Of a stretch of DNA of 64,000 bases, positions 14,551 through 61,682 are shown piece by piece. The notes under the pieces are model-generated. The model was not told where the DNA came from, searched no databases, and saw only the letters and a program-made list of their open reading frames with translations. A program made the translations under genes and the position numbers. The stretch covers positions 459 through 64,458 of the forward strand of contig JASJXX010000002.1 in NCBI GenBank assembly GCA_030123765.1, given 5' to 3'. Source of the stretch: Actinomycetota bacterium (lineage in GTDB: Bacteria; Actinomycetota; Acidimicrobiia; Spongiisociales; UBA5794). The stretch's first letter is position 1; each line of letters opens with the position of its first letter.

Positions 14551-14590
14551 CGACGTGCAGCCTATCGGGGTAGCGAGTGCGAGACCGGCA

Positions 14591-21504: not shown

Positions 21505-21529
21505 CTGATCACAACCTTTGGTCGTTTCG

Positions 21530-21601
21530 CTGGGGGGACAGGACTCGAACCCGTACTAGGTGGACCAAAACCACCTGTGCTGCCAGTTACACCACCCCCC
21601 A
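21530..21601 (-). tRNA. tRNA-Gln (anticodon UUG)
   Basis: A hand-folded cloverleaf has a 7-bp acceptor stem UGGGGGG/CCCCCCA, a 4-bp D stem, an anticodon stem GGUGG/CCACC with loop UUUUGGU, and a T arm ACGGG-UUCGAGU-CCUGU. There is no encoded CCA. It lies between glmU and ispE as in other actinobacteria. Confidence 0.9.
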
Positions 21602-41368: not shown

Positions 41369-41652
41369 TGTGTGTCCTTTCGGATTGTCCCTTGGCGCTG
41401 GTCGGCCTTCCATTCACCGGCTGAGGTCAATGAATGCAGGGGGAACCAGCGCAAGACTTTTGACTTGCTGTCTGGTCACTTCCTCCATCCCGCTGTTTCC
41501 GTATCCGGCATTCTGGGCTGTCCCGCCCGGGCGATGAATGCTTTGGGGGAGGCGTCCCTCCGTATGCGGCCCTAAGGGGGAAGTAAGGGCAAAGTAACCC
41601 CCGCGTGTAATGTTGTACAGTCGATAATCAATGAATTGTGAGCAGTGGTGTT

Positions 41653-42969
41653 ATGCAGGTGAATCCCAGTGACGACAAGGGCTATCGCAATAACTCTAAA
41701 GTGATATTCGGATGGGCGATGTACGACTGGGCTAACTCGGCCTATATCACCATCTTCGGCGCGATCGTTGCTGCCTTCTTCGCCAGCGAGATCATGACGA
41801 ACGACACACACTGGGGTTTATCAGCGGAAGCCCTATGGTCGATCTTCATCGGGCTCGGGTCCATCGTCCTGCTGCTCGCCATGCCGATCCTCGGCGCCAT
41901 CGCCGACTACACGAATGGGAAGAGACGCTTCCTCAGGAACTTCGCCATCGTCGGCGCTCTGTTCACGATGCTCATCTCGCTCGTGCCCGGGGGGCAGGTG
42001 TCGCTCTTCCTCTTCGTCCTTGTCGTGAGCCAGTTCGGATTCGTGGCCGCGAACGTCTTCTATGACGGCTACCTGCCAGAGATCGCTTCAGACGACACGA
42101 TCGACCAGGTATCATCCAAAGGGTTCGCCCTCGGCTACCTCGGTGGCGGCATATATCTCGCCTTCGCCCTCGTCCTCATCTTGACCTCAAGCGATCAGGC
42201 CAGCGCCATTCGGATCGCGATCTTCGGCTCCGGGGTCTGGTGGTTGCTCTTCTCGGTCGTCTCGCTCGTCAGGCTTCCTTCCGACAGTGCCATCCTCAAG
42301 AAGAAGAGCCTGCGCGAGTACACCTCGATCGGATTTTCGAGGACGATGGCCACGACGCGCAAGCTCAGAGAATTCCCGCAGCTCCTGCGCTTCATCGTCG
42401 CATTCGTCATCTACAACTCCGGTACCGGAACGGTCATCGCCGTGTCGGGTGTGTACGCGATAGAGACTCTTGAGCTCGACGTAACGATGGTCGCGATGGC
42501 TTTCTTGATCGTGCAGTTCGTCGCATTCTTCGGCGCGTTCTTGCTCGGCGCGCTCGCGAGACGGATCGGACCGAAGACAGCGGTCATGATGACCCTGGTC
42601 GTGTGGGTCGGCGTCGCCGTCGGGGCGTACTTCCTCCCGGTGGGAGCGTCCTTAGGGTTCCTGGGACTCGCGGGTGTCATCGGATTCGTCCTCGGCGGAG
42701 TACAGGCACTCTCTCGCAGCCTCTATGGAACGATGATCCCGGAGGAGGCGTCCGCGGAGTTCTTCGGTTTCTACTCGGTGTTTTCGAAGATGTCGGGCTT
42801 CGGGCCGCTGATCTTCGGTATCGTGGCCGCGGTGAGCGGGTCCGGCCGGGCCGCCATCCTGTCTGTCGCGTTGTTCTTCATCGTCGGTCTCATTCTGCTC
42901 GCCCGTGTAGACATCGACGAAGCTCGTGCGTCACGTGACCGCTGGGATTTCGCAACGACCGATGGCTGA
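41653..42969 (+). CDS. MFS transporter, UMF1/Atg22-like family
   Basis: The N-terminus VIFGWAMYDWANSAYITIF is typical of the UMF1 family. It has about 12 TM helices. The start is ATG 41653 or GTG 41638. Confidence 0.8.
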   Translation: MQVNPSDDKGYRNNSKVIFGWAMYDWANSAYITIFGAIVAAFFASEIMTNDTHWGLSAEALWSIFIGLGSIVLLLAMPILGAIADYTNGKRRFLRNFAIVGALFTMLISLVPGGQVSLFLFVLVVSQFGFVAANVFYDGYLPEIASDDTIDQVSSKGFALGYLGGGIYLAFALVLILTSSDQASAIRIAIFGSGVWWLLFSVVSLVRLPSDSAILKKKSLREYTSIGFSRTMATTRKLREFPQLLRFIVAFVIYNSGTGTVIAVSGVYAIETLELDVTMVAMAFLIVQFVAFFGAFLLGALARRIGPKTAVMMTLVVWVGVAVGAYFLPVGASLGFLGLAGVIGFVLGGVQALSRSLYGTMIPEEASAEFFGFYSVFSKMSGFGPLIFGIVAAVSGSGRAAILSVALFFIVGLILLARVDIDEARASRDRWDFATTDG

Positions 42970-43010
42970 CGAGCGACGGCACACGCCATCGATGTGTGCA
43001 ATACTGCCGC

Positions 43011-43535
43011 ATGAACCTCAGTGATATCACCATCTCGGAGCCTTCCGGGGCATCCGTCCAGCTTGCGGACGTCATTGCAAGCCCAACCGTCATAGTGCTT
43101 ACGAGGTACTTCGGCTGAGCGCCATGCCTTAAAATGCTGGCGCAGTTCGCGGCAGTTCACGACTCGATCAAGACACAGGGCGGGGCAGTCATCGGCATTG
43201 CTCCGGCGGCTCCTCATCAGGCGGAACGTCTGATGGGAACTTCCATCTCGTTCGCTCTCTACCTGGACCCCGGCCAGCTCGTGGGGGAGCGAATGGGCAT
43301 CGGAAGACAGTCCCTTGGCCGGTTCCTCTTCAACGTACCTGCGTGGGGTCGGTACACCAGCGCGCTCGTGACGAGCCGGCGCCAGGGGCGCATCACCGGG
43401 CACTACTCGAACCTGCCGGGGATCGCTGTCACCGATGCGGCCGGTGACGTCACGTACCTCTACAGAGGAACGGGGCTCGGCGACTACCCGCCGCTCGCGA
43501 CCGTCCGCTCTGAACTCGATGCTCTCACCGGCTGA
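43011..43535 (+). CDS. Peroxiredoxin-like (AhpC/TSA_2, PRXL2/SelU-type) thioredoxin-fold protein with in-frame TGA at the first redox Cys (candidate selenoprotein; alternatively a nonsense pseudogene)
   Basis: ATG 43011 opens 35 codons, then TGA at 43116-43118, and the same frame continues into the track ORF 43134-43535. The motif reads VIVLTRYFG-TGA-APC where family members have FGCxxC. Confidence 0.55.
43119..43155 (+). promoter_or_regulatory. Candidate bacterial SECIS region (two mutually exclusive hairpins)
   Basis: Hairpin A pairs GCGCCA 43119-43124 with UGGCGC 43138-43143. Hairpin B pairs CUG(G)CGC 43137-43143 with GCG(G)CAG 43149-43155, with a 5-nt loop AGUUC starting 28 nt after the U of UGA. 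Confidence 0.35.
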
Positions 43536-43881
43536 TACTCCCGCCTCCGCCCGGCCGGACCATGTACGGGGGAGACGTCGCATCGACCACCTGAAGGAAG
43601 GACCGCACACGCCCTCTCGGGCCGGTGATCGATATCATGTCGTCCGCTATGGCAGATGACATGGCGAGCCTCCGCATGCACACCTGGTAGAGCGTCGCGG
43701 TGTCGGCCGTGACGACGAGGTCAACTTCGAGGCACGGGTCGTCCAGACAGAGAGACACTTCCCCGGCATCGGCGACGATCCAGGAGCGACCGGGACGGGG
43801 TCCGCTGAGACGGAATTCCACGACAAGGCGGTCCGTTCCTGGGAGAATCATGTCCGGCATCCAGTTCTTTGAGGCCCGCAT
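43525..43881 (-). CDS. Hypothetical protein, SCP2 / MDMPI-C-like fold suspected
   Basis: It is 118 aa. The pattern LVVEFRLSGP..SWIVADAGEVSL....VDLVVTADTATLYQV..RRL....AIADDMISITGP resembles sterol-carrier-like small proteins of actinobacteria. This is similarity by eye only. Confidence 0.4.
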   Translation of the reverse strand: MRASKNWMPDMILPGTDRLVVEFRLSGPRPGRSWIVADAGEVSLCLDDPCLEVDLVVTADTATLYQVCMRRLAMSSAIADDMISITGPRGRVRSFLQVVDATSPPYMVRPGGGGSISR

Positions 43882-44042: not shown

Positions 44043-44528
44043 ATGGCCGTCATGGCAAGTGAGCAACAGAGCGGCAGAGTCCTCATGGTGGTTGGAACCG
44101 TGGTTGCGCTGCTGATCGGTGTAGCGGTCGTGGTCGCCATCCAACCTCCACCGGTGTTCGACCCTTCCACCCCCCAGGGCACAGCACAAGGATATTTCAA
44201 CGCCGTGCTCGACGACGACGACGATCTCGCGTTCACCTACTTCAGCGAGAACCTCGAAGAGAGATGCGACGACGACTTCCGTCGATACGACCGAACCGGT
44301 GCCGGTCGGGTCGTGATCACCCGTACCGTAACCGACGGTGACCGTGCCGAACTCGATGTAGTGATCACGGTGAGGCACAGCAGCGGTCCCTTCAGCGACG
44401 GCTCGTACGACGTCGAGGTGACGCTGGTCATGGAGCGCCACGGTGACCGGTGGCTGATCACCGAGCTTCCGTGGCCGTGGGATCTCTACCCCTGTAAATG
44501 GGAACCGGAAACTGAATCGAAAGGTTGA
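44043..44528 (+). CDS. Membrane-anchored hypothetical protein
   Basis: It has a single N-terminal TM (VLMVVGTVVALLIGVAVVVAI) followed by a soluble alpha+beta-looking domain. Its stop overlaps the TTG start of the next gene. Confidence 0.55.
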   Translation: MAVMASEQQSGRVLMVVGTVVALLIGVAVVVAIQPPPVFDPSTPQGTAQGYFNAVLDDDDDLAFTYFSENLEERCDDDFRRYDRTGAGRVVITRTVTDGDRAELDVVITVRHSSGPFSDGSYDVEVTLVMERHGDRWLITELPWPWDLYPCKWEPETESKG

Positions 44529-46279
44529 CCTTGAACATTCTGCTCGGCCTCTTCGGCCTCGCCATTCAATTCGCGATCATCGGTGGCATCGTCTTTCTCA
44601 TCGTGCGACTCGTGGCAAATCGCGACAGCGCTAGCAGCGAAGGCACAGGCATCGCGATCCGTCGCTTCTTCCAGTACACGGTCATGCTTGCGATGCTCCT
44701 GCTCACGGGTATCGGGCTCGCAGGGCTGATCAATGCTGCAGTAGCATCGACAGCGACGATTGCCCGGGGCAGCGCGTCGACCGCGCTCTGGATCTCTTTC
44801 GTCTTCGTAGGACTCCCCGTCTTCGTGGGCATGTCGATGTACACGCTGCGACGCCTCAAGGATGGCCCGCGAGAGCAGAACTCGCTTGGCTGGGCGTTCT
44901 ATCTCACGATCGCGCTCGTAGGCTCGCTCGTGACCGTGATGTCGCTGGTCGTCGCGTTCCTCGCCGAGCTGCTCGACGACCGGCGCGTCGATCGCACGAT
45001 CCTCGTCCACGCGGTGGTCTGGACCGCTGTCTGGGTGGGCCATTGGTGGGTAGCCCACCGGTGGGTCCCGAGGCACGGCGCGCGTCTCCATCTCCTCCTC
45101 GGCTCGGCTGCAGGCCTCATCGCGACGCTCACCGGTGTGATCTCGGGCCTCATCGCCGTCCTCCAACAGATTTACGACAGGATCTTCCTCGTATCGGTTC
45201 TCGGCTCCGGCCTTGAGGATCTCGTACGGCCGCTGATCATCCTCGTTGTCGGTGTTCCCGTGTGGTGGTGGTACTGGTTCCGCCACACCCGGGACGGCAC
45301 GCGAACCACACTCTGGCTCGCGTACGTGATCCTCCTTGGCATCCTCGGAGGGGCTGTCACTGCCATCTCCGGCGCCGGGATCATGCTCTTCGGTCTCCTT
45401 CAATGGATCGTGGGGGATCCGTCTTCAGCTACCGCAGCGGGCCATTTCGCTCTCCTCCCCGGAGCCTTGGGCACCATCGCCGGCGGTAGTGCCGGCTGGG
45501 CGTACCACTCACTCGTCCTGGGCAGACGCCCGCAGCAAGAGCGCTCCGAAGTCGACCGGGTCCACGACTACGTATTAGCTGGTGCGGGCCTCGCCGTCGC
45601 CGCGACCGGGATCACGACTCTCCTCAGTGTCACGCTCCGGGCACTGGGAGCACGACCGATCACCGAGTCCGGCCCGGGGGACAGCGTCGCCGTCGCTCTC
45701 ACGCTGCTGGTGATCGGTGTTCCGCTCTGGTGGCGCTACTGGTCGGCGATCCGCCGAAGCCGGGAGATGGATCTCACGGGAGAGCTCCACTCGATCACGC
45801 GACGCATCTACATCTTCCTGATCTTCGGTGTGGCGGGAATCGTGACCGTGATCAACCTCATCGTCGTCGTCTTCATCACGTTCGAGGACATTCTTGACGG
45901 GGCATTCGGGGGCGCGACTCTGAGGAGCGCAGCGGTGCCGATTCCTCTGCTCCTGACGGCGAGCGCACTCGCGTGGTACCACTTCACGGTGTTCCGCGAG
46001 GACCGCGCCGCTTTGGAGTCCGAGGATGCCGAGTCGGCGGAGGCGGAAGCGCTGGCTCCGCGCAGCGTCATCGTCGTATCTCGAGACGGTGAGGAACTCA
46101 TAGAAGCGATCAGGACTCGAACGAACGCCTCGGTGAGCTCCCTGCATGTCGTCGGCGACCGAACCGCAGCGCGCTCCCTTGAGGACGTGCTCGAAGTTCT
46201 GGCAACCGGCCAACACCAGCGGGTGATAGTCGTTCTCCGCCGGGACGACGGATACGACGTCATACCTATCGCAGAGTGA
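44525..46279 (+). CDS. Polytopic membrane protein with internal repeats and a C-terminal soluble domain
   Basis: It is 584 aa with about 12 or more TM helices. A recurring module ends in GLPVFVGMSMYTLRRLKDG, VGVPVWWWYWFRHTRDG and IGVPLWWRYWSAIRRSRE. It has a cytoplasmic tail of about 100 aa. Confidence 0.6.
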   Translation: MTLNILLGLFGLAIQFAIIGGIVFLIVRLVANRDSASSEGTGIAIRRFFQYTVMLAMLLLTGIGLAGLINAAVASTATIARGSASTALWISFVFVGLPVFVGMSMYTLRRLKDGPREQNSLGWAFYLTIALVGSLVTVMSLVVAFLAELLDDRRVDRTILVHAVVWTAVWVGHWWVAHRWVPRHGARLHLLLGSAAGLIATLTGVISGLIAVLQQIYDRIFLVSVLGSGLEDLVRPLIILVVGVPVWWWYWFRHTRDGTRTTLWLAYVILLGILGGAVTAISGAGIMLFGLLQWIVGDPSSATAAGHFALLPGALGTIAGGSAGWAYHSLVLGRRPQQERSEVDRVHDYVLAGAGLAVAATGITTLLSVTLRALGARPITESGPGDSVAVALTLLVIGVPLWWRYWSAIRRSREMDLTGELHSITRRIYIFLIFGVAGIVTVINLIVVVFITFEDILDGAFGGATLRSAAVPIPLLLTASALAWYHFTVFREDRAALESEDAESAEAEALAPRSVIVVSRDGEELIEAIRTRTNASVSSLHVVGDRTAARSLEDVLEVLATGQHQRVIVVLRRDDGYDVIPIAE

Positions 46280-46291
46280 TCCGCGAGTTGG

Positions 46292-47752
46292 CTACGCCTC
46301 GTCGACTGATGCGTTAAAGGATTCGATCATCTCGTCGATCGGATCTACCAACGCCTGAATACCCGTCCAGTAGTCCGAGTCGTACCACTGGGACTGGATC
46401 TCCTCATACGTCTTACCCTGCTGTTCGACCCACGTGTAATACTTCAGGTTGTGGACTCGCTTACGCTCGTAGTAGTCGAGCTCCTGCACATGTTGGAGGC
46501 TCTGGCCCATGAGATGCTGGTGGTAGGCGGCCGCAGCATCATGCGCCGTGAACTCGCCCCGCTCGTCGTTGAGTTCCGCCAGACGCGACCCGTACATCTC
46601 CATCGAGTCCGTCCCGACCGTCATCACGACGTCGTTCCCTGTGAGCTCGTACCACTTCGCGAACTTGATGGCCATCAACATGTTCGCGACCCCGGAGATA
46701 CCAAGGAGCGGAAGCTTCTCGATGAACGCCGCAGATGCTCCCTGGGCAGCCAGGTAGGCAAGGCCTGCAGGCTCGTTAAAGAGACGGATCAGGCTGATCG
46801 ATGACTCGTCATCGATCCCCATCACCATGTCTGTGTTGCGCACGTTGTGGATCCACGGGATGTGCTTGTCCCCGATCCCTTCTATCCGGTGCTCACCAAA
46901 GCCGTTGTAAAGCATTGTCGGGCACTCGGTCGCTTCACCCGCAACGATCTTCGAGTTCGGATACTGCTGTTTGAGGTAGTCTCCCGACGCGATCGTTCCG
47001 GCCGAGCCCGTTGTCAGGGTCACGCCGGCGAACCGGTCGAGCGGGCCCATGACCTCCCTGAGGACCTCGAACATGGCCGGGCCTGTGACCGAGTAGTGCC
47101 AGAGATAATTTCCGAACTCGTCGAACTGGTTGAAGATCACGAGATCCTCGCCCGAGACCCGCAACTCGTTGCACTTGTCGAAAATCTCTTTGACGTTCGA
47201 CTCGGTTCCCGGCGTCCTGATGATCTCGCCTGCCACGCTCTCGAGCCAATGGAACCGTTCGGCACTCATCCCTTCAGGGAGGATCGCGATCGACTCGCAC
47301 CCGAGGAGATTCGAGTCGTAGGCGCCGCCCCGACAGTAGTTGCCGGTCGAGGGCCATACAGCCTTCTGCGTTGCGGGGTCGAACTGGCCGCTGACGAGCC
47401 TCGGGACGAGGCAGCCGAACGCCGCGCCGACCTTGTGGGCGCCGGTCGGAAACCACTTTCCCTCGAGCATGATGATGCGAGCGTCAACACCGCTGACCTC
47501 GGGGGGAACTTCGAAGTAGTTCACCCCACCAAACCCTCCGCCCGAGGGTGTCGGGTCGTTGTGCCAGGTGATGCGGTACAGGTTGACGGGGTCGAGATCC
47601 CACAGCCCGACGCTGCCGAGGCGCTGCTTCACCTCTTCAGGGACCAGGCTCGGGTCCCGCATCTGCTTGAACGTCGGGATCTTGAAATTCCGCGCCTTTG
47701 CCTGGATGACGGCGGAGCGGAGAACAGACTCGTTGACGGTGAGGTCGATCAT
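46292..47752 (-). CDS. Fold-type II PLP-dependent enzyme (cysteine synthase/CBS-like core with long N- and C-terminal extensions)
   Basis: The candidate PLP-lysine segment is FPTGAHKVGAAFG, followed by WPSTGNYCRGGAYDS...AILPEGMSAERF, which parallels the PxGSxKDR...SGNxG...MPExMSxER pattern. It is 486 aa and the last gene of the carbamate-kinase operon. Confidence 0.7.
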   Translation of the reverse strand: MIDLTVNESVLRSAVIQAKARNFKIPTFKQMRDPSLVPEEVKQRLGSVGLWDLDPVNLYRITWHNDPTPSGGGFGGVNYFEVPPEVSGVDARIIMLEGKWFPTGAHKVGAAFGCLVPRLVSGQFDPATQKAVWPSTGNYCRGGAYDSNLLGCESIAILPEGMSAERFHWLESVAGEIIRTPGTESNVKEIFDKCNELRVSGEDLVIFNQFDEFGNYLWHYSVTGPAMFEVLREVMGPLDRFAGVTLTTGSAGTIASGDYLKQQYPNSKIVAGEATECPTMLYNGFGEHRIEGIGDKHIPWIHNVRNTDMVMGIDDESSISLIRLFNEPAGLAYLAAQGASAAFIEKLPLLGISGVANMLMAIKFAKWYELTGNDVVMTVGTDSMEMYGSRLAELNDERGEFTAHDAAAAYHQHLMGQSLQHVQELDYYERKRVHNLKYYTWVEQQGKTYEEIQSQWYDSDYWTGIQALVDPIDEMIESFNASVDEA

Positions 47753-47777
47753 GACGGACGGTCCTTTCCGTTGCCTC

Positions 47778-49031
47778 TCAATTGCTCAGGGCTGCTTTGA
47801 GCGCCTCGAGGTTCGGGTCGATGTACATGGGCTCGGTCCCGACCGCGGCTACAGCGCTCATGACCGAGGCAACGTCCTTGAGGCCGCTCCCGGTCGCGAG
47901 CATCACGACTCGGTCTCCGGCTCCGATGAGACCACGGTCAAGAGCCGCGACGATACCGGCGTACGGCGCAGCTCCCGCCGGTTCAGCGAAGACGCCCGAT
48001 CCGCGCGCCAACGTCGGTATTGCGGCAAGAATTTCGTCGTCTGCGACACGGAGATACGCTCCCCCCGTCTCGGTGACGGCTGCCATCGCCTTGATACGGT
48101 CACGGGGCAGATCGGCACTGATCGAGTCGGCAACAGTCTCCGCAGAGATAGGGGGCTTGGTCAGCACGTCCTCACCGCTCTCGAAGGCTTGAACGAGATA
48201 GTCACTCCCTGCGGCCTGAATGCCGAAGATACGCGGCACGCGGTCGATCCATCCGAGGGCGAAGGCATCCTTCACGGCCTTGTGGACCCCGCCGATGATC
48301 GACCCGTCGCCGACGCTCACGAAGATGGCGTCGGGGGCCTCCCATCCGAGGTCTTCGAGGATCTCGAGACCGGCGGTTTTCTTCCCCTCCGTCATGAACG
48401 GGTTGTACCCGGTATTGCGGTTGTACCAGCCGTACTCGGCGACGGCCTCCATGCAGAGTTCGAATGCGTCGGTGTACGTGCCATTGACGAGAGCGACCGT
48501 AGACCCGTACGCGAGCAACTGGGCGATCTTCGCTTCCGGCGCGGAGGAGGGGACGAATATCACGCTGCGCAGCCCGACGCTCGCCGCGATTCCGGCGAGG
48601 GCTGCTGCGGCATTCCCCGTCGACGCGGTGGTGACGACCTCCGCCGCACGCGCCTGCGCCTTGACGACGGCCATCGCCGAGGCACGGTCCTTGAGCGACG
48701 CCGTCGGCTGACGCCCCTCGTCCTTTACCCAGAGGTTCGCTATCCCGAGCCTGGCCGCGAGTGGCTTCACGTCATAGAGCGGCGTCCCTCCGATGCTGAG
48801 CGGCGGGACCACCGTGTCGCTGGCGAGCGGCATGAGCGGGAGATATCGCCACATCGTGCGATCTCGATTCTCGGCGAGTACCTCGCGCGTGAAGGTTGCT
48901 CCGATGCGCTCATAGTCGTAACGGACATCGAGTATCCCCTCGTTGCCGTGATCCGTGCAGACGTAACCTGCAAAGTCTTCCGGGTACATCGTGCCACAGA
49001 TCACGCACGCGAGTCCGATGACGTTACTCAT
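47778..49031 (-). CDS. Threonine synthase-like PLP enzyme with N-terminal zinc-ribbon
   Basis: It has the N-terminal CVICGTMY...YVC, then GGTPLY, KDEGRQPTASLKDRAS (PLP Lys) and TASTGNAAAALA. It is 417 aa and has an ATGA overlap with carbamate kinase. Confidence 0.8.
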   Translation of the reverse strand: MSNVIGLACVICGTMYPEDFAGYVCTDHGNEGILDVRYDYERIGATFTREVLAENRDRTMWRYLPLMPLASDTVVPPLSIGGTPLYDVKPLAARLGIANLWVKDEGRQPTASLKDRASAMAVVKAQARAAEVVTTASTGNAAAALAGIAASVGLRSVIFVPSSAPEAKIAQLLAYGSTVALVNGTYTDAFELCMEAVAEYGWYNRNTGYNPFMTEGKKTAGLEILEDLGWEAPDAIFVSVGDGSIIGGVHKAVKDAFALGWIDRVPRIFGIQAAGSDYLVQAFESGEDVLTKPPISAETVADSISADLPRDRIKAMAAVTETGGAYLRVADDEILAAIPTLARGSGVFAEPAGAAPYAGIVAALDRGLIGAGDRVVMLATGSGLKDVASVMSAVAAVGTEPMYIDPNLEALKAALSN

Positions 49032-49969
49032 CGAACGATCCTGGTGCCGGTCTCGCCGGCCATGGCCCGCTCGAGGTTCTCAGGATTTGTGATCAGTGCT
49101 TCGCTGCCTCCAGCCTCGAGGAACTGGACGACGGCACGCATCTTGGGGGCCATCGAACCCTCGGCGAAGTGTCCGCCCTCCTCAAGGTACGCCTTCACCT
49201 CGTCGAGCGTGAACTCATCCATCCACCGCTGATCCGGTGTACCGAAGTTGAGCGCGACCTGCTCGACTGCGGTGCAGATGAGCAGGAGATCGGCTCCGAT
49301 CTCGCTCGCCAGGAGCGCCGACGCGAGATCCTTGTCGATCACCGCCGCGATCCCTTCCAAATCTCCCTCTTCGTTCACAACGACCGGGATACCGCCGCCG
49401 CCGACGGCGATGGTGACGATTCCGGCGTCAACGAGGACCCGGATCACATCAAGTTCGACGATCCGCATCGGATGGGGGGAGGCCACGACACGACGCCAGC
49501 CGCGCCCGGCATCCTCAACGACATCCCAACCCTCCTCGTCGCGCCGGCGCACTGCCTCGTCCTCGTCCATGAAGGATCCGATTGGCTTCGTCGGCTTGTC
49601 GAACGCCGGATCGGCACGATCGACCTCGACCTGTGTGACAACCGTGACGACGCTCTTGTCGATGCCGCGCTGGCGAAAGTCGTTGACCAGGTTCTGCTGG
49701 AGCATGTACCCGATCGCGCCCTGTGTGTCAGCCCCGCAGTAATCGAGCGGGACCTCGTGAAGCTCGTTACTCGCAAGCTCGGACCGTCGCAGGATGAAAC
49801 CGATCTGGGGTCCATTGCCGTGAGAGATCACGACGTCCCACCCCTGCTCAACGAACGTTGCGATACGGTCGTCGGTCTCGGCCGCGGCTGCGTACTGGTC
49901 CTGGACCGACTGGTGCCTGGCGTCCGGGATCAGCGAATTACCGCCAATGGCGATAACGAGTCTGGGCAT
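49028..49969 (-). CDS. arcC: Carbamate kinase
   Basis: It has MPRLVIAIGGNSL and VISHGNGPQIG and is 313 aa, matching the amino-acid-kinase fold of ArcC/YqeA type. Its start overlaps the upstream stop (TAATG). Confidence 0.9.
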   Translation of the reverse strand: MPRLVIAIGGNSLIPDARHQSVQDQYAAAAETDDRIATFVEQGWDVVISHGNGPQIGFILRRSELASNELHEVPLDYCGADTQGAIGYMLQQNLVNDFRQRGIDKSVVTVVTQVEVDRADPAFDKPTKPIGSFMDEDEAVRRRDEEGWDVVEDAGRGWRRVVASPHPMRIVELDVIRVLVDAGIVTIAVGGGGIPVVVNEEGDLEGIAAVIDKDLASALLASEIGADLLLICTAVEQVALNFGTPDQRWMDEFTLDEVKAYLEEGGHFAEGSMAPKMRAVVQFLEAGGSEALITNPENLERAMAGETGTRIVR

Positions 49970-50928
49970 TACTCCCAGGCTCCGAGCACGGACGACAGCA
50001 GAGCCATGCGCATCACGACACCGTTGTAGGCCTCCTGCCAGTACCGGGCATGCTTGAGCTGGTCAACCTCCGGGAGCAGCTCGTCCATTCGCGGGAGCGA
50101 GTGGAGGATGATCGAGTCGCCCTTGGCCCGCTTCATGACCTCAGGAGTGATCTTGTAGTTGGCCGGGGTGAGGCCGTAGTCGTCGGGCCTCTCCTGAACG
50201 GAGAGGGTGTAATCGGGCTGGATGACCGGCTCCATGTAGATCACGTCGGCTTCGGCGATGACATCGTCGATGTGATCGACGACACGGTAATTCGTGCCCT
50301 TCTCGTCGAGCTCGGCAAGGAACTCCGGGAGAGGGGACATCTCCTCGGGAGCGAGGATGACCATCTCGACGTCGAATTGTGACAGGGCGTATCCGAGGGA
50401 GTGCATCGTCCGCATCCGGTGGTCACCGATGGCGACGAACGTGAGCCCGTCGATGGTGCCCTTCTCCTTCAACACGGTGTAGAGATCCGTGAGGATCTGG
50501 GTCGGATGCTCACCCCAACCGTCACCGGCGTTGATGACCGGGATTGAGCACCACTTGGCGGCCTCGTGGGGAGCACCCTGCTCAAAGTGGCGCATGACCA
50601 GGACATCGCCGTAGTACTCCAACATGTGGACCGTGTCTTTGATCGACTCCTGGTAGAAGTCGCCGGCACGCGTCATCTTGGCGTCCGAGAAGCCCGTCAC
50701 GTGACCGCCGAGGCGGTGCATCGCGGCCTCGTGGGCGAGCCGCGTCCGTGTGGAGGGCTGATAGAACGCGGTCACAAGCGTCTTGTGGGCAAGGAGATCC
50801 GTGTTTCGGCGTTCCCGGGCGATCGGCTCAAGGCGGTCGGCAATCTCGAAGAGGTGGAAGAACTCGCTCCGCTCGAAGTCCTTGAGGGAGAGAATGTCGC
50901 GTCCGGTGAAGCTACGCATGCCTGGCAT
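49969..50928 (-). CDS. ATCase-fold carbamoyltransferase with non-canonical acceptor site (not a plain PyrB)
   Basis: The carbamoyl-phosphate motifs STRTRLAHE, VMRH, GEHPTQ and the ATCase-type LHSLPRMDEL are present. The E. coli PyrB segment YMTRVQKER (Arg229, Gln231) reads YMEPVIQPD here. Confidence 0.8.
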   Translation of the reverse strand: MPGMRSFTGRDILSLKDFERSEFFHLFEIADRLEPIARERRNTDLLAHKTLVTAFYQPSTRTRLAHEAAMHRLGGHVTGFSDAKMTRAGDFYQESIKDTVHMLEYYGDVLVMRHFEQGAPHEAAKWCSIPVINAGDGWGEHPTQILTDLYTVLKEKGTIDGLTFVAIGDHRMRTMHSLGYALSQFDVEMVILAPEEMSPLPEFLAELDEKGTNYRVVDHIDDVIAEADVIYMEPVIQPDYTLSVQERPDDYGLTPANYKITPEVMKRAKGDSIILHSLPRMDELLPEVDQLKHARYWQEAYNGVVMRMALLSSVLGAWE

Positions 50929-50956
50929 CCTTTGAGTCGGCTTGGTACATTGGCCA

Positions 50957-50966
50957 TACTATAGTA
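50957..50966. promoter_or_regulatory. Perfect 10-bp palindrome TACTATAGTA in an AT-rich divergent promoter region (candidate GntR/HutC operator)
   Basis: It lies between the divergent starts at 50928 (-) and 50982 (+). It is flanked by GTACA repeats (50946-50950 and 50964-50968) and overlaps -10-like hexamers TATAGT, TACAAT and TATTAT. Confidence 0.45.
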
Positions 50967-50981
50967 CAATATTATGACCCT

Positions 50982-51734
50982 ATGCCATGCGGAGTGCTCC
51001 CGATGATTACCCGCAACCCGTCACTCACCGACCAGGTGAAAGCGCACATCAAAGAGCTCATCCTCACCGACGGTTTCGAGGATGCCCGAATCCCCCCCGA
51101 GACGGAGCTCGCCGCCGACCTCGGAGTCAGCCGCACCACCGTCCGCGACGCGCTGAGTCGCCTCCAGAGCGAGGGAGCGATCTATCGCCGTCAGGGCGCA
51201 GGCACCTTTGTCAACCAGCAGGGCCTCCAGATCAAGTCCCGCCTCGAAGACATCTGGTCCTACGAGAAGCTCCTCGAAGACCACGGATTCGAACCGTCGG
51301 TGCGAGTGCTCGCCGCATCCAAGGCTCCCGCCGACTCCCCCACCGCCGAGGCCCTGGGCCTCAACGACGGCGACATGGTGCTGATCATCGAGAAACTCTT
51401 CCTCGAAGACGAGAAGCCGGTCATGCTGACGATCAATCGCATCCCGACCCACTTCCTGAGCGGAACCGACTACGCCGACGATGAGGCGGCCCCGATCTAC
51501 GAGTTTCTCCAGGACCACTGCGACCGCTCACTGAGCTACTACCTCTCAGAGATCATCCCGGTCGCCCTCGACGCCGACACGGCGTCCAAGCTCGGGGTTG
51601 ATCCGGGCACACCGGCGATCTCATTCGACGAGATCGGATTCGACCAATCCAACGAGCCGCTCGTGCGGGCGACGTCACACTTCCGCGATGACCTCCTTCG
51701 GTTCCGGCTCATCCGCAAGAGAAGCGGGGCATGA
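50982..51734 (+). CDS. GntR family transcriptional regulator, HutC subfamily (UTRA effector domain)
   Basis: It has the winged HTH ETELAADLGVSRTTVRDALSRLQSEGAIYRRQGAGTFV followed by a UTRA-like C-terminal domain. The alternative start is ATG 51003. Confidence 0.88.
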   Translation: MPCGVLPMITRNPSLTDQVKAHIKELILTDGFEDARIPPETELAADLGVSRTTVRDALSRLQSEGAIYRRQGAGTFVNQQGLQIKSRLEDIWSYEKLLEDHGFEPSVRVLAASKAPADSPTAEALGLNDGDMVLIIEKLFLEDEKPVMLTINRIPTHFLSGTDYADDEAAPIYEFLQDHCDRSLSYYLSEIIPVALDADTASKLGVDPGTPAISFDEIGFDQSNEPLVRATSHFRDDLLRFRLIRKRSGA

Positions 51735-51775
51735 ACCATCCTCAGCCAGAGTCACGAGCCACAAAGGAGTAGTTG

Positions 51776-52750
51776 ATGCAGACCTATCTGCGGGGCCGCG
51801 ACATGATCACGACCCAGGAGTGGACCAAGGACGAGCTCGACACGGTGATCGATATCGCCCTCGACCTGAAACGCCGACGGGCTCTCGGTGAGCCGCACGC
51901 TCTGCTACGCGACAAGGTCCTCGCGATGTTGTTCTTCTTCTCAAGCACTCGAACCAGAGCAAGCTTTGAGGCCGGCATGGCCCAGCTCGGCGGCCACGCC
52001 ATGTTCCTCGACTCGACGAGCACCCAGATCGGCCACGGCGACACCTGGAAGGAGATCGGAGACATTCTGGGCCGCTACAACGATGGGATCGCCATCCGCC
52101 AGGTCGACTGGGGCATCGGCAACGACTACATCCGCGCCGTTGCGGAGGCCAGCCGCACCCCGGTGCTCAACATGCAGTGCGACTGGTATCACCCCTTCCA
52201 GGCACTTGCGGACCTGCTGACGATCATCGAGCAGAAGGGCGACCCCCGCAAGCTCACCATCAACATGAGCTACGCGTACGCAGCCAGCTATCAGAAGCCC
52301 ATCAGCGTGCCGCAGAGCCTCATCCTGCTCATGACCCGGTACGGCGCGAACGTGCGCCTCACCCATCCGCCGGAGTTCAAGCTCATGCCCGAGATCATCG
52401 CTCAGGCTGAGGAGAATGCCAAGAAATCCCACGGGTCCTTCGAGATCGTCGAAGACTTCGAGGAGGGGATGCGCGGCGCAGACGTCGTCTACGCCAAGGC
52501 GTGGGGTTCGATGCTCACCACCTCTGACCATGAAGAGTCAGCAAAGATCTCGGCGCATTACCAGGACTGGATCGTCGACCCGAGGCGGATGGAGATGGCC
52601 CACGAGGATGCCATCTACATGCATCCGCTCCCGGCCGACCGAAACGTAGAAGTGGCGGACGCCGTCATCGACGGGCCATCAAGCCGCGTGTTCGACCAGG
52701 CCGAGAATCGGCTCCACGTGCAGAAGGCGGTGATGGCGCTCACGATGTGA
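51776..52750 (+). CDS. YgeW-like (knotted) carbamoyltransferase
   Basis: It has SSTRTRASFE. NMQCDWYHPFQALADL matches E. coli YgeW NLQCDIDHPTQSMADL. SYQKPISVPQSLILLMTRYGANVRLTHP matches SYGKPLSVPQGIIGLMTRFGMDVTLAHP. It also has YMHPLPADR. The RBS AAGGAG lies 6 nt before ATG 51776. Confidence 0.8.
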   Translation: MQTYLRGRDMITTQEWTKDELDTVIDIALDLKRRRALGEPHALLRDKVLAMLFFFSSTRTRASFEAGMAQLGGHAMFLDSTSTQIGHGDTWKEIGDILGRYNDGIAIRQVDWGIGNDYIRAVAEASRTPVLNMQCDWYHPFQALADLLTIIEQKGDPRKLTINMSYAYAASYQKPISVPQSLILLMTRYGANVRLTHPPEFKLMPEIIAQAEENAKKSHGSFEIVEDFEEGMRGADVVYAKAWGSMLTTSDHEESAKISAHYQDWIVDPRRMEMAHEDAIYMHPLPADRNVEVADAVIDGPSSRVFDQAENRLHVQKAVMALTM

Positions 52751-52801
52751 GCGCTGTCGTGGATCCGGATCGTTGCGTCTCACCACGAGAGGACGCACGA
52801 G

Positions 52802-53380
<579 letters not shown>

Positions 53381-53433
53381 GGAGATGTGACCATGAGAAG
53401 AGTCGTCGGATATGTCGACGGTACCGACTCGGC

Positions 53434-53673
53434 GTGCGCATCGGTCACGTTCACAAGGTTTACGCCCCCCACGACAGCGTGCCGCCGGGAGGTGTCACCT
53501 ACCAGGACATCTTCCACGTCTGCCGCACCTTCGACACCCCTCTCCTCATTGAAGTCCACAACGGGCTCCGCGACAAGGCGGAGACGCTCGTCGCCGACAT
53601 CCCGGATGTCGTAGAATTCGTGGATCCAGCGGCGATGCTCTCCAAGGTGCGGGACAATCTCGAGAACAAGTAA
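53434..53673 (+). CDS. Hypothetical small protein (79 aa)
   Basis: It has a GTG start, high third-position GC and a protein-like sequence (VTYQDIFHVCRTFDTPLLIEVHNGLRDKAETLVADIPDVVEFVDPAAM). I recognise no family. The overlapping minus-strand ORF looks like a mirror artefact. Confidence 0.4.
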   Translation: MRIGHVHKVYAPHDSVPPGGVTYQDIFHVCRTFDTPLLIEVHNGLRDKAETLVADIPDVVEFVDPAAMLSKVRDNLENK

Positions 53674-53714
53674 CAGACGCTTCGGCGTCCTCAGCGATCC
53701 AGAAAGGGGCGTCG

Positions 53715-54860
53715 ATGCCTCCTCACGCATGGACTGTGCACAACCCGACCGGCAGTCGCCGCGTCATTGTCACGAAGGAGCTCCCCGGGAGCCGGTGGCT
53801 CCACATCCTGACTGCCGCCGACTGTCGTGTGGAGGTCTGCACATCGGATACCGCCCTCACCGTCGATGAGATCGCCGGACAGATCGGTGACTCCTGCGAC
53901 GGAGTGATCGGCCAACTGACCGAAGACTGGAGCGCCGAGCTCTTCGCCATCCTTGCCGCAGCGGGAGCGAAGGCCTACTCGAACTACGCGGTCGGGTACA
54001 ACAACGTCGACGTCAACGGAGCGACGGCTGTAGGCATCCCGGTCGGGAACACGCCGGGCGTTCTCACGGAGACGACGGCGGAGATGGCTGTTGCGCTGAC
54101 CTTCTCGGCCGGTCGCCGTATCTGCGAGGCTGACAGGTTCATGCGCGACGGGAAGTATCACGGCTGGCTCCCGAGCCTGTTCATGGGGAAGCGTTTCCAC
54201 GGTGAAACCGTCGGCATCGTCGGTGCGGGACGGATCGGCGCTGCCTACGGGAGGATGATGGTCGAGGGTCACAAGATGAACCTCGTCTACTTCGATCTGT
54301 ACCCCAACGAGGCGCTCGAGCAGTACGTCAGTGCGTACTCGGCCTTCATCCAGGCCCGGGGAGAGGAACCGGTGACCTGCCGCCGGATCGCGACGATCGA
54401 AGAGCTACTCGCACTCTCAGACATCGTCAGCCTCCACACGGTTCTCGATGACAGCACGCATCATCTCATCAACGCCGAGCGACTGGCAGCGATGAAACCG
54501 GATGCGATCCTCATCAACTCGAGCCGGGGTCCCATCATCGACGAGGCAGCGCTCGTTGCACACTGCCGGACACATCCACAGTTCACCGCAGGCCTTGACG
54601 TGTTCGAAGACGAGCCCGCCATGAAGCCGGGCCTCGCCGATCTCGAGAACGTCGTCATCGTGCCGCACATCGCGTCCGCGTCGAAGTGGACCCGCGAAGG
54701 CATGGCGACCCTCGCGGCAGCGAACGTCGCAGCCATCCTCCAGGGGTACCCCTTGTGGAGCGGTGACGACGTTCTGCCATTCCTCTCGGGTGACGTGCCC
54801 CAAGCGGCGCCGAGTATCGTCAATGCCGTTGAACTCGAACTGCACGAGAAGGGAACCTAG
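53715..54860 (+). CDS. hprA: Hydroxypyruvate/glyoxylate reductase (glycerate dehydrogenase), plant HPR1-like
   Basis: It looks colinear with plant peroxisomal HPR1 from memory. Matching blocks include CDGVIGQLTEDW, YNNVDV, GNTPGVLTETTAE, GWLP, VGIVGAGRIGAAYGRMMVEG, LDVFEDEPAMKPGLADLENVVIVPHIASASKWTREGMATLAA and APSIVN. Confidence 0.85.
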   Translation: MPPHAWTVHNPTGSRRVIVTKELPGSRWLHILTAADCRVEVCTSDTALTVDEIAGQIGDSCDGVIGQLTEDWSAELFAILAAAGAKAYSNYAVGYNNVDVNGATAVGIPVGNTPGVLTETTAEMAVALTFSAGRRICEADRFMRDGKYHGWLPSLFMGKRFHGETVGIVGAGRIGAAYGRMMVEGHKMNLVYFDLYPNEALEQYVSAYSAFIQARGEEPVTCRRIATIEELLALSDIVSLHTVLDDSTHHLINAERLAAMKPDAILINSSRGPIIDEAALVAHCRTHPQFTAGLDVFEDEPAMKPGLADLENVVIVPHIASASKWTREGMATLAAANVAAILQGYPLWSGDDVLPFLSGDVPQAAPSIVNAVELELHEKGT

Positions 54861-54864
54861 AAAA

Positions 54865-56058
54865 ATGCGTATCGCCGATCGTATCGCCGACCTCGGGACC
54901 GAGACCGCATTCGCGGTGTCGGGCGAGGCTGCAACCTTTGCCGCACAAGGGAACCGGGTATATCCCTTCCATCTCGGAGACATCAACCTTCCTACCCCGT
55001 CGACCGTCGTCGAAGGGGCTGAGAAGGCGATCGCGGATGGCAAGACCGGGTACTGCCCGAACGCCGGGATCCCACAGCTCCGCGAAGCCATCGCCTCTAA
55101 CGTCGCTGCCTCCCACAAAACCGATTACACGGCCGAGAACGTCGTGATCCAGCCGGGTGGCAAGCCGACGATCGGTAAGTTCATCCTCACGCTGATGAAC
55201 CCGGGAGACGAGGTGCTCTACCCGAACCCGGGGTACCCCATCTACGAGTCCCAGATCGAGTTCCACGGTGGAGTCGCCGTCCCGTACGGGTATGTCGAGG
55301 GTGTCAAGAACTTCGAGTTGGACTTCGATTCGATCGAGCGTGGCATCACGGAGAAGACCCGCCTCCTGATCCTCAATGACCTGCAGAACCCGATGGGCGC
55401 CGAGTGCTCCATCGAGGAGCACGAACGGCTCGCCGAAATCGTCCGCGCACACGACCTGTACGTCCTCGCCGACGAGGCCTACTTCGACATGCGCTACTCG
55501 GGGGAGAGCACATCCTTCGTTGAGCAGCCCGGCATTGCGGAACGAACTGTCGTGTTGTACACCTTCTCAAAGAAGTTTGCAATGACCGGGTGGCGCCTCG
55601 GTGCGAGCATCGGCCCGAAGGAGATCATGGAGGTAATCGCCAAGATCAATGTCAACGACGAATCCTGCTCGAACCACTTCGTCCAGTACGGCGCTCTCGC
55701 AGGGCTACGCGGGGACCAGAGCGAGGTGCAAGCGATCCTCGACACGCTCGAAGCACGAAGGGACGCGACCGTCAACGGGTTAAACGCGATCGACGGGATC
55801 ACCACGTTCACGCCCGACGCCACCTTCTACCTGTTTCCCAACGTCACCGAGCTGATGGAGCGGAAGAACATCAAGAGCTACGAGGTGTTCCGCCGCGCGG
55901 CCCTCCACGCCACGGGGGTGTCGTTCACCTCCCGGATCCACTTCGGCCGACAGGTCGATGACGAGTCGAACCGATACATCCGCTTCGCCTACTCAGGCAT
56001 CGACGTCGCCGACATCGAAGAGGGCCTCGGCCTCTTCAAGGAGTGGGCAGAGCGGTAG
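54865..56058 (+). CDS. Class I/II PLP-dependent aminotransferase
   Basis: It has the PLP-lysine region YTFSKKFAMTGWRLG, NPGYPIY, and LILNDLQNPMG. It is 397 aa and starts 5 nt after the hprA stop. Confidence 0.85.
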   Translation: MRIADRIADLGTETAFAVSGEAATFAAQGNRVYPFHLGDINLPTPSTVVEGAEKAIADGKTGYCPNAGIPQLREAIASNVAASHKTDYTAENVVIQPGGKPTIGKFILTLMNPGDEVLYPNPGYPIYESQIEFHGGVAVPYGYVEGVKNFELDFDSIERGITEKTRLLILNDLQNPMGAECSIEEHERLAEIVRAHDLYVLADEAYFDMRYSGESTSFVEQPGIAERTVVLYTFSKKFAMTGWRLGASIGPKEIMEVIAKINVNDESCSNHFVQYGALAGLRGDQSEVQAILDTLEARRDATVNGLNAIDGITTFTPDATFYLFPNVTELMERKNIKSYEVFRRAALHATGVSFTSRIHFGRQVDDESNRYIRFAYSGIDVADIEEGLGLFKEWAER

Positions 56059-56068
56059 CCCGAGGGGG

Positions 56069-56656
56069 CTACTCGCTCTGCAGTTCCTCGTAGTCTCGGG
56101 GGGTGTTGATGTCGCGAGGTGCACTCTGCGCCACCGCAACTTTTACCACGCGGTCGTCCTGCGCGTCGACAAGGAGGCGCCACAGCACCTTCTCCCCCAC
56201 CATCGACGCAGCACACTCCACCGCGTCGCGTGACAGAAGGAAAGGGTGGGCGACCCGGTCGCGGTACGCGGCCACCGCTGCCCAGGGTCTCTCCTCCGTC
56301 CAGACCCCGACCATCGTATTGATGACGGTGGTCCGAACCTGGGGCAGATCGCCCGCCACGAGCAGGAATGCGGCGGCGTCAGGATCCGCGGTAGTCGCCG
56401 TGAGGAGTGACGACATGTTCCCACGGCGGTAGTCCGGATTCGTCACGACCGTCACGGAGACGGCCTTGATCGACGCTTCGACCATCTCTGCATCGCACCC
56501 GGTGACGACGATCACCCTGTCAAGCATGCTCGCCTGGACCGCATCAATCGTCGCGTTGAGTACCGTCGTCCCCTGGTACTCCAGCGTGAGCTTCGATGCT
56601 GCCATCCGCGTCGAGGCGCCTGCGGCGAGAACGACCCCGACGATTGGACGCGGCAT
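56069..56656 (-). CDS. mocA: Molybdenum cofactor cytidylyltransferase (MocA-like nucleotidyltransferase)
   Basis: It has VVLAAGASTRM, matching the MobA/MocA NTP_transf_3 fold. It is the last gene of the Mo-hydroxylase operon. Confidence 0.8.
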   Translation of the reverse strand: MPRPIVGVVLAAGASTRMAASKLTLEYQGTTVLNATIDAVQASMLDRVIVVTGCDAEMVEASIKAVSVTVVTNPDYRRGNMSSLLTATTADPDAAAFLLVAGDLPQVRTTVINTMVGVWTEERPWAAVAAYRDRVAHPFLLSRDAVECAASMVGEKVLWRLLVDAQDDRVVKVAVAQSAPRDINTPRDYEELQSE

Positions 56657-58876: not shown

Positions 58877-59340
58877 GCTCCCTCACTTGTCAGTGCGGTG
58901 AAGGCGCGCAGGATCGCCCCGTATCCAGTGCACCGGCAGATATTGCCAGATAACGCCTCACGAATCTCAGGCTCGGTCGGGTGCGAGTTCGTCTCGAGCA
59001 GATGCACGCCAGTAACGATGAACCCGGGAGTGCAGAAACCACACTGGACGGCACCCTCTGCGAGCATCACCTCCTGGAGTGGGTGCAACTGCGCGCCCTC
59101 CCCGATTCCCTCGACGGTCGTCACTGTCGCGCCGTCGGCGTCCGCCGCCATGACAAGACACGAGCAGACGGCTGCACCGTCGAAGATGACGGTGCATGAT
59201 CCACACTCCCCCTGCTCACACGCGTCCTTCGTACCCGGCAGACCAAGATCGTTACGAAGTGTGTGCAGCAGGCTCTCGGAACCCGCAACATCCACGGAAC
59301 GTCGCTCTCCGTTAACGGTGATCACGATGGGCACGGTCAC
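58873..59340 (-). CDS. [2Fe-2S]-binding small subunit (CoxS/XdhC-iron-sulfur type)
   Basis: All eight Cys ligands are present: CEQGECGSCTV...CSC and CGFCTPG...CRCTGY. The GTG 59340 start overlaps the upstream TGA. Confidence 0.9.
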   Translation of the reverse strand: MTVPIVITVNGERRSVDVAGSESLLHTLRNDLGLPGTKDACEQGECGSCTVIFDGAAVCSCLVMAADADGATVTTVEGIGEGAQLHPLQEVMLAEGAVQCGFCTPGFIVTGVHLLETNSHPTEPEIREALSGNICRCTGYGAILRAFTALTSEGA

Positions 59341-60137: not shown

Positions 60138-60217
60138 GACCGTACCGTAGCCCGCGGCCCGCTGCCACTTGTCCGTCGCCCGTGGCCGGCGAAGGGCTCC
60201 CGCTGCTCCTCTCCCCG

Positions 60218-61582: not shown

Positions 61583-61682
61583 AGAAGTGAATGTACCAAC
61601 CTACTCAACTCCTACGTCGCTCTCCGAGCTCCGTTCTCTCGGTAAAGTGGAGGCACGGGATAGAAGAGGAGCCGAGACGAAC

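Follow-up and report, generated by a model that had tools for sequence, protein, structure and literature searches.

In vertebrates, fish and bird SelU are selenocysteine (Sec, U)-containing members of the PRXL2/SelU family, and SelU and SelL are eukaryotic Sec-containing relatives within the PRX-like2 (PRXL2/SelU/SelL) superfamily. SelL is a UxxU selenoprotein of eukaryotes and marine bacteria. Human PRXL2B, with a cysteine pair instead, is also known as prostamide/prostaglandin F synthase (PDB 9us9/9usa). Bacterial peroxiredoxin-like (Prx-like) selenoproteins with a thioredoxin fold and a UxxC motif have been known since the Sargasso Sea and Global Ocean Sampling (GOS) surveys, and are among the commonest selenoproteins in marine metagenomes. 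Here we describe a gene of this kind at positions 43011–43535 (+) of a 64,000-nucleotide (nt) stretch of contig JASJXX010000002.1 from an Actinomycetota bacterium (class Acidimicrobiia); the whole stretch is referred to below as the window. An earlier note on this DNA had proposed that a TGA codon in the gene encodes the redox-active Sec of a SelU/PRXL2-type protein missed by open reading frame (ORF) calling. Comparative sequence analysis argues, with a probability of about 0.9, that 43011–43535 is a real, systematically mis-annotated selenoprotein gene, encoding a thioredoxin-fold UxxC protein and carrying a selenocysteine insertion sequence (SECIS) element within its coding region.

The gene comprises 174 codons plus a stop, an architecture found at 70 loci. 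Its frame is interrupted only by TGA 43116–43118, within TRYFG-U-APC. The joined translation reads MNLSDITISEPSGASVQLADVIASPTVIVLTRYFG-*-APCLKMLAQF..., with ...VIVLTRYFG preceding the stop, and the proposed 174-residue product is MNLSDITISEPSGASVQLADVIASPTVIVLTRYFG-U-APCLKML...DALTG. Thirty-five sense codons run from ATG 43011..43013 to the TGA, after which the frame stays open to the true stop, TGA 43533..43535. The choice of start follows the homologs, which begin with M or V at the aligned position, right before [NH][LI][SG]D[IV]; an in-frame GTG at 42996, considered as an alternative start, finds no support in them. The UGA at 43116..43118 would be read as Sec at residue 36 (U36), the putative attacking residue of U-A-P-C, and TGC 43125..43127 encodes Cys39, the putative resolving cysteine of UxxC, kept in every Sec-form sequence and in nearly every Cys-form sequence. 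The ORF list holds just two pieces of the gene, 42996–43118 (40 amino acids, aa, from the upstream GTG) and 43134–43535 (133 aa). The second begins at the internal ATG of Met42 (43134..43136), a mistaken start at a position where Met is not conserved and many homologs have Q or F. The GC content by codon position is 0.51/0.46/0.71 on the 5′ side of the TGA and 0.67/0.53/0.76 on the 3′ side, that is, a coding pattern on either side. The layout given in the earlier note (a listed ORF of 133 aa only, 35 open codons split off by the TGA with a third-position GC of about 70%, and a retained resolving cysteine) is the one seen in the sequence. All 525 nt are identical in six contigs of independent sequencing runs, and a seventh contig, from marine sediment, differs at 4 positions over the 525 nt and retains the TGA; since seven independent assemblies retain it, the TGA is not a sequencing or assembly artefact.

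Two further ORFs touch the gene. An antisense ORF of 279 aa (42771–43610, −) spans the whole of it, with a codon-position GC of 0.67/0.56/0.66; because this composition merely mirrors that of the sense frame, the ORF is spurious, as is typical of high-GC DNA. An ORF of 118 aa (43525–43881, −) converges on the gene and overlaps its final 11 nt; it is called as a gene on public contigs, and its only Pfam matches are weak, below-threshold ones to SCP2 and MDMPI_C.

A first protein search, with the joined product as the query and C replacing U, yielded 38 relatives. Of these, 36 are called at 112–142 aa and span just the C-terminal ~75% of the query, while the two full-length relatives (173 and 178 aa, 38% identical) have RYYG-C-MPC at the aligned site. 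In the DNA of six homologs an in-frame stop is present at the identical column in all six, and it is always TGA; the codons upstream of it are conserved as protein (...PT-VVL-RY[FY]G-*-xPCL...). Scans of wider genome and metagenome collections added 110 loci. Across all fetched loci, the Sec column holds TGA in 70, TGC or TGT in 35, and TAA or TAG in none; the distinct proteins are 56 Sec-type and 31 Cys-type. On this comparison, the shared in-frame TGA is far beyond what chance would be expected to give.

In every Sec-type gene the frame is open for at least 34 codons before the TGA and for about 135–145 after it. The pairwise differences upstream amount to 0.41/0.33/0.59 at the three codon positions, a pattern that matches both the downstream part and the Cys forms; translation and purifying selection therefore extend to the 35 upstream codons. 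On either side of the TGA the frame is intact even at ~35% identity among Sec forms, and no scattered stops or frameshifts are seen in any of the 56 distinct Sec-form proteins. Decayed copies of the family do exist (L050, L053, L054, L055, L106, L110, L112, and L116) and look different: only C-terminal parts are left, the N-terminus is gone, and stops are scattered. They belong to the Cys clade and include copies from Hoyosella rhizosphaerae, Kribbella catacumbae, and several metagenome contigs. The two patterns that, according to the earlier note, would speak against a selenoprotein, namely random stops or frameshifts in relatives and upstream codons that are never kept, are therefore absent from the TGA forms, and the alignment of TGA- and Cys-containing homologs that it had called for places both states in one column.

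Cysteine at the exact Sec column is found in homologs from Rhodococcus, Nocardia, Kribbella, Mycobacterium, and others, e.g., as RYYG-C-MPC in Rhodococcus, Nocardia, and the full-length Cys homolog P0034. The Cys-form taxa also include Lolliginicoccus, Haloechinothrix, Nitriliruptorales, and some Acidimicrobiia, while the named Sec-form genomes are nearly all metagenome-assembled genomes (MAGs) of Acidimicrobiia or other Actinomycetota, Microthrixaceae among them. The deepest splits of a neighbour-joining tree are covered by the Sec state: one clade, from marine sediment, has U-[AP]-[PAG]-C, another, from soil, has U-[MILV]-P-C, and their mutual identity is only ~35%. Two Sec-to-Cys switches are enough to account for the distribution of the two states.

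Two side observations concern single members. The Sec-form genes L017, L029, and L048 lie on contigs binned as Gammaproteobacteria, Acidobacteria, and Burkholderiales MAGs, and their sequences nest within the Acidimicrobiia forms; mis-binning or horizontal transfer could account for their placement. The full-length protein P0055 (195 aa) has C-M-P-E at the active site, with the resolving Cys gone, and is possibly a one-Cys variant, judging by its motif.

Downstream of the UGA, a bacterial SECIS-type hairpin is predicted within the coding sequence at 43136..43156 (+): GCUG-G-CGC / AGUUC / GCG-G-CAGU. It begins 18 nt past the UGA, and its apical loop (43144–43148) begins 25 nt past it. The DNA alignment of the post-TGA region shows a near-invariant block 19–38 nt downstream, which reads CUG-NCG-CAG-UUG-GCG-NCR-G in the marine clade and CUC-UCG-CAG-UUG-CGG-GAG in the soil clade; both blocks fold to a hairpin of 7–8 base pairs (bp) with loop AGUU(G). 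The hairpin is predicted in 55 of 56 Sec forms, and the mean minimum free energy (MFE) of the 30-nt segment is −11.8 kcal/mol in Sec forms vs −5.6 kcal/mol in Cys forms. The third-codon-position entropy is 0 bits at the stem codons +7, +8, +9, and +11 and 1.1–1.8 bits elsewhere; this absence of variation at the stem points to a constraint at the RNA level on top of the protein code.

Published criteria for bacterial SECIS elements (bSECIS) are a loop of 3–9 nt on a stem of at least 4 bp, a G in the first two loop positions, a UGA-to-loop spacing of 16–37 nt, and an MFE of at most −7.5 kcal/mol (PMC13188914). All four features are present in the window hairpin (an AGUUC loop 25 nt from the UGA, on a 7-bp stem with a single G.G mismatch; −10.1 kcal/mol) and in 44 of the 56 Sec forms, where the spacing is always 25–26 nt; only 3 of 33 Cys forms have them, at scattered positions. 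A search for a SECIS downstream of the UGA, suggested in the earlier note, thus ends in a hairpin that agrees with the published description and is specific to TGA forms.

Pairing in the stem is retained where the sequence changes. In the marine clade, five of the eight pairs are invariant, and one pair switches among G.G, A-U, U-A, G-U, and U-G. With the soil clade and three distant members added, 93% of cells are paired vs 41–67% with a slid partner, double-sided changes appear in three pairs, and the covariation score is above 497 of 500 shuffles; across the pairing analyses, 90–93% of cells are paired vs 25–70% with a slid partner. The most divergent member, GUCAUGC-AGUU-GCAUGAC, shows three compensatory changes relative to the consensus CUCUCGC-AGUU-GCGGGAG. 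The element is a compact 21-nt SECIS with an invariant core GC-AGUU-GC.

The protein itself matches AhpC-TSA (PF00578) with 33.7 bits vs a 26-bit threshold over residues 5–107. To AhpC-TSA_2 (PF13911), the family named in the earlier note, it scores 21.4 bits, under the 27-bit gathering threshold, although PF13911 matches are precomputed for most close homologs. The sole NCBIfam match is NF040769, 'SelL-related redox protein', whose cutoff is 120 bits and to which the window protein scores 67. For ten further Sec and Cys members the scores are 56–105 bits; the alignments with this model run end to end (positions 4–172 of 173) at E from 1e-15 to 1e-30, and the model is the best curated match in every branch tested. 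As all 11 members tested score below 120 bits, the family is placed as a sister group of NF040769 and not as a member of it.

A structure model of P0034 (AlphaFold, AF2; mean predicted local distance difference test, pLDDT, 83; predicted template modelling score, pTM, 0.78) shows a thioredoxin fold and places the Sec-equivalent Cys between strand 29–34 and the N-terminus of helix 40–51, the strand-then-helix setting that had been supposed for the CxxC position. The best PDB matches of this model in Foldseek are to human PRXL2B (E = 1e-10, template modelling (TM) score 0.68–0.81), followed by BCP/PrxQ peroxiredoxins and ResA. PRXL2B is also the best PDB match by sequence (phmmer E = 3.2e-8 with P0034). 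VRYYG-C39-MP-C42-R of P0034 aligns with LRRFG-C44-VV-C47-R of PRXL2B, and the C-terminal motifs QG.[IL][ST]G and GDY are common to both proteins. Because C39 and C42 of P0034 align with C44 and C47, U36 and Cys39 of the window protein correspond to the catalytic CxxC of PRXL2/SelU proteins. The SelU/PRXL2-type assignment of the earlier note holds at the superfamily level, on the PRXL2B alignment and the top Foldseek match, with two refinements: the closest curated bacterial model is NF040769, and the PF13911 score of the window protein itself lies below threshold.

The peroxiredoxin signature PxxxT/SxxC(U) is absent: the window protein has PTVIVLTRYFG-U, with Tyr at −3 and Val at −7. We therefore take it to be a selenol/thiol oxidoreductase of the thioredoxin type and not a classical peroxidase. 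The window protein has no evident signal peptide or membrane anchor, and the best explanation of the product is a cytoplasmic thioredoxin-fold thiol/selenol oxidoreductase of the PRX-like2 superfamily. In the proposed mechanism, the hairpin at 43136–43156, with its AGUUC loop, would recruit SelB with Sec-tRNASec during translation, and UGA 43116–43118 would be decoded as Sec, not as a stop, to give the 174-aa protein. The U36-A-P-C39 motif would sit at the N-terminus of helix alpha-1; Sec36 may attack an oxidised substrate (a disulfide, sulfenic acid, or peroxide-type bond), Cys39 would resolve the intermediate to a selenenylsulfide, and a cellular thiol reductant would reduce the latter.

The same truncation recurs throughout public annotation. 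An exhaustive HMMER search of 1.84 billion cluster representatives gave 810 relatives at E ≤ 1e-3, 109 of them at E ≤ 1e-10. Among the best 150 representatives at 50% identity, 87 are N-terminally short without the active-site motif, 29 are CxxC proteins of full length, and the other 34 are fragments or of unclear type; about three quarters of the classifiable clusters among these 150 represent the truncated form. The DNA of three much more distant short-called representatives was checked, and in each the TGA (LRYYG-U-xPC) is accompanied by the N-terminal extension and the AGUU-loop hairpin, so that the Sec state extends beyond the closer relatives. NCBI, JGI, ENA, and Logan store the protein or its close relatives as fragments of ~130 aa that, as had been predicted for the 133-aa product, lack the active site. 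The names given are 'peroxiredoxin' or 'hypothetical protein', never selenoprotein, and in dozens of related Acidimicrobiia genomes gene calling has truncated the gene in this way.

The organisms with TGA forms appear to decode Sec, as judged from two indirect lines. A second candidate selenoprotein gene came from a search for Cys/TGA pairs over all fetched DNA, which gave one convincing extra candidate. This is a lipoprotein-like DUF3179 gene (PF11376, E = 3.5e-54) at L022:14153-15283 (+), with a TGA at 14561; L022 is an Acidimicrobiia contig, and the gene lies 3.7 kb from the Sec-form gene of the same contig. Ten homologs have VTYCPLC where this gene has VTY-U-VVC, the in-frame TGA standing in the column of their first Cys. 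Downstream lies a strong hairpin, GCGGGAUC-AGUUUC-GAUCCCGU, with 21 nt between the UGA and the start of its loop. Among known prokaryotic selenoprotein families, DUF3179 is listed with the motif UxxC/T. The loop start A-G-U-U is common to the two unrelated genes, the UxxC family gene and the L022 DUF3179 gene, as would be expected if one SelB serves both. A 2026 preprint reports selA, selB, selC, and selD in all 84 complete genomes of Actinomarinales, an order within class Acidimicrobiia.

Several observations weigh against a selenoprotein at this locus. Neither the 64-kb window nor ~1 Mb of related loci yielded genes for tRNA-Sec, SelA, SelB, or SelD; as both are small fractions of the genomes, this negative is weak. 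In particular, ARAGORN found no tRNA-Sec in the window and 1.03 Mb of loci; tblastn with E. coli SelA, SelB, and SelD queries gave no matches, again a weak negative; and a Pfam/NCBIfam screen of ~40 window genes contained no sel genes. The stem of the window hairpin itself carries a G.G mismatch. Covariation within the marine clade is thin, five of eight pairs never varying, and its score is not above the shuffle control; here classical covariation is limited because the stem is so conserved. The 81-nt fold of 43110–43190 is no more stable than shuffles (z = 0.67), and Rfam, in which bacterial SECIS elements are not modelled, gives no match in the region at gathering scores or at E ≤ 10. These last two results are uninformative for a 21-nt bacterial SECIS: the true signal, as the alignments indicate, is a short hairpin of 21 nt, which comparative analysis alone reveals. 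Finally, Sec insertion at this site is predicted from the sequence.

The alternatives to a selenoprotein together take up only the small remaining share of the probability. One is a split gene: translation would stop at the UGA to give a 35-aa peptide, and a ~133-aa C-terminal protein would be synthesised on its own, perhaps through coupled re-initiation, with the two acting jointly or alone. Gene callers do find a start shortly after the TGA, the 35-aa ORF is also called in two contigs, and in the soil clade an ATG directly follows the TGA (U-M-P-C). However, the M of U-M-P-C is also present in Cys forms (C-M-P-C), and the downstream Met is not conserved, many marine members having Q or F there and no nearby ATG. 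If termination sufficed, TAA or TAG would be expected, while neither occurs among the 56 distinct sequences. A split would, moreover, remove the catalytic residue, cut the thioredoxin fold between beta-1 and alpha-1, and leave the TGA-specific hairpin unexplained. We consider separate products improbable.

Just as improbable is a UGA recoded to a residue other than Sec, be it Cys, via a Sec-like tRNA and a SelB-type factor, or Trp or Gly, via hairpin-stimulated near-cognate read-through. Natural UGA-to-Cys recoding via Sec-like tRNAs has been described in some bacteria and provides a precedent, and the inserted residue is not identifiable from the sequence. Against this, the site is the nucleophilic Cys of CxxC, a classic Sec position; the hairpin fits the SelB-type SECIS consensus; a related contig carries a member of a known selenoprotein family (DUF3179) with the same loop motif; and the Sec machinery has been reported for the class. 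A genome-wide reassignment of UGA is ruled out, since the remaining genes of the window terminate normally and further in-frame UGA candidates did not turn up: two scans of the window by third-position GC (GC3) and motif and one by gene boundaries returned only wrong-frame noise or adjacent genes.

A nonsense pseudogene, meaning a decaying CxxC oxidoreductase locus inactivated by a TGC-to-TGA mutation, is effectively refuted, although a single C to A change would suffice and no Sec machinery is seen in the window, because the identical TGA recurs in 70 loci of proteins only ~35% identical and too divergent for a single-clone origin, without extra stops or frameshifts, with purifying selection on either side and a conserved hairpin with frozen synonymous sites after it, while genuinely decayed copies have lost their N-termini and carry scattered stops; this was the alternative that the earlier note had raised.

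The selenoprotein gene of the window and its closest relatives lie in a conserved block, which consists of an ATG22-like major facilitator superfamily (MFS) transporter (41638–42969), the selenoprotein gene, a 161-aa protein (44043–44528), and a DUF5671 protein (44525–46279). The MFS / 161-aa / DUF5671 block is lineage-specific and says little on function, and neighbourhood analysis shows no partner gene common to all clades. In deeper marine subclades a DUF547 gene (PF04784) directly follows the Sec-form gene on the same strand in seven loci (L006:8722-9501, L015:10590-11378, L022:10523-11305, L073:1148-1939, L075:1391-2179, L076:1472-1960, and L077:2770-3552), and at L023:10001-11353 the Sec-form gene is fused in frame to DUF547. 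The DUF547 proteins have an invariant LVCGSxSCP motif (CxxxxC) and a C-terminal Cys, and are candidate redox partners or substrates of the UxxC protein, as far as motif and gene order suggest; no convincing copy is present in the window. DUF3179 genes in the Cys form (CPLC motif) adjoin the family gene or lie within 1–7 kb of it in at least ten loci, drawn from the Sec as well as the Cys clades (L036, L037, L042, L049, L050, L052, L055, L097, L101, and L102), being directly adjacent in L037, L097, L101, and L102. The links to DUF547 and DUF3179 are genomic observations, not demonstrated interactions.

Other parts of the window were considered for traces of selenium use. Window positions 46292–64000 hold a purine/ureide catabolism cluster, with two pyridoxal phosphate (PLP) enzymes, carbamate kinase, two carbamoyltransferases, a GntR regulator, a PucD-like xanthine dehydrogenase (XDH) with a flavin adenine dinucleotide (FAD) subunit, a MocA-like cytidylyltransferase, and 8-oxoguanine deaminase; a second XDH-family gene runs off the window. 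As a marker of a selenium-dependent molybdenum hydroxylase, and hence of SelD, the cluster was rejected: the large subunit fits PucD (732 bits) much better than the selenium-dependent XDH model, where it scores 395 of the 830 bits required, and YqeB/YqeC are not present in the cluster. It fits an ordinary XDH, not a selenium-dependent one. The EF-G-type factor at 5–1777 (+), cut by the window start, was rejected as SelB, as it carries EF-G domain IV. The sole tRNA in the window is tRNA-Gln(UUG) at 21529–21601 (−). A 140-aa ORF at 52958–53380 (+) matches just residues 54–156 of the 445-residue NADP-specific glutamate dehydrogenase (229 bits) and is, by this partial match, probably a gene remnant.

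A wider picture is conceivable, and we offer it tentatively, at clearly less than even odds. The gene may belong to a bacterial branch of the SelU/SelL (PRX-like2) superfamily that has so far gone unrecognised and mostly contains Sec, which would be its ancestral and majority state. Such a branch would be widespread in Acidimicrobiia of sediment and soil and invisible in public annotation, would act in a dedicated redox module with DUF547, which the extracytoplasmic CPLC protein DUF3179 may join, and would have the A-G-U-U loop as the SelB recognition signature of the lineage.

As to practical consequences, hundreds of gene calls could be put right with a family model in which U is permitted at this column. 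The analysis adds a well-supported selenoprotein family to Acidimicrobiia, an abundant but little-studied class of marine sediments and soils, whose selenium use has been barely described so far. It also supplies a clean matched set of Sec and Cys orthologs together with a compact SECIS, both of which could be used to study the retention of Sec and target recognition by actinobacterial SelB. The main value lies in this corrected annotation and in the Sec/Cys and SECIS data set for Acidimicrobiia; the knowledge of how selenoproteins work is unchanged, the thioredoxin-fold UxxC type being the commonest kind in marine metagenomes.

Among known systems, the PRXL2/SelU family shares with the present one the thioredoxin fold and, where helix alpha-1 begins, the motif R-x-[FY]-G-[C/U]-x-x-C. 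Its Sec, in SelU, presumably stands at the same first position of the motif. The differences are an identity of only 22–24% and the place of the SECIS, which is bacterial and lies in the coding sequence right after the UGA here, but in the 3′ untranslated region (3′-UTR) in eukaryotes; there is also no evidence here for prostaglandin-type substrates. The SelL relatives of NF040769 represent the same type of Prx-like thioredoxin-fold redox family, with UxxC in the present proteins vs UxxU in SelL, as cited in PMC2398784. AhpC/BCP/PrxQ and ResA/TlpA have the same fold, as the next-best structural matches after PRXL2B, but ResA/TlpA proteins have a signal peptide or membrane anchor, and the window protein has neither. 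No paper or curated model was found for this particular family, in a search that lay outside the published representatives of the 'Prx-like thiol:disulfide oxidoreductase' and cd02970 UxxS families.

The marine-metagenome Prx-like families, i.e., 'Prx-like thiol:disulfide oxidoreductase' and Prx-like 1/2/3, are distant homologs of peroxiredoxins in which UxxC replaces the TxxU of true Sec-peroxiredoxins. Like the family described here, they have Cys homologs and a bSECIS directly after the UGA, and are abundant in marine samples. Compared by description, they differ in their known representatives, which come mainly from Deltaproteobacteria and surface-ocean reads, whereas the present family is centred on Acidimicrobiia of marine sediment and soil. 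The UxxC mechanism is an ordinary one, and the family may be new within this known kind of selenoprotein.

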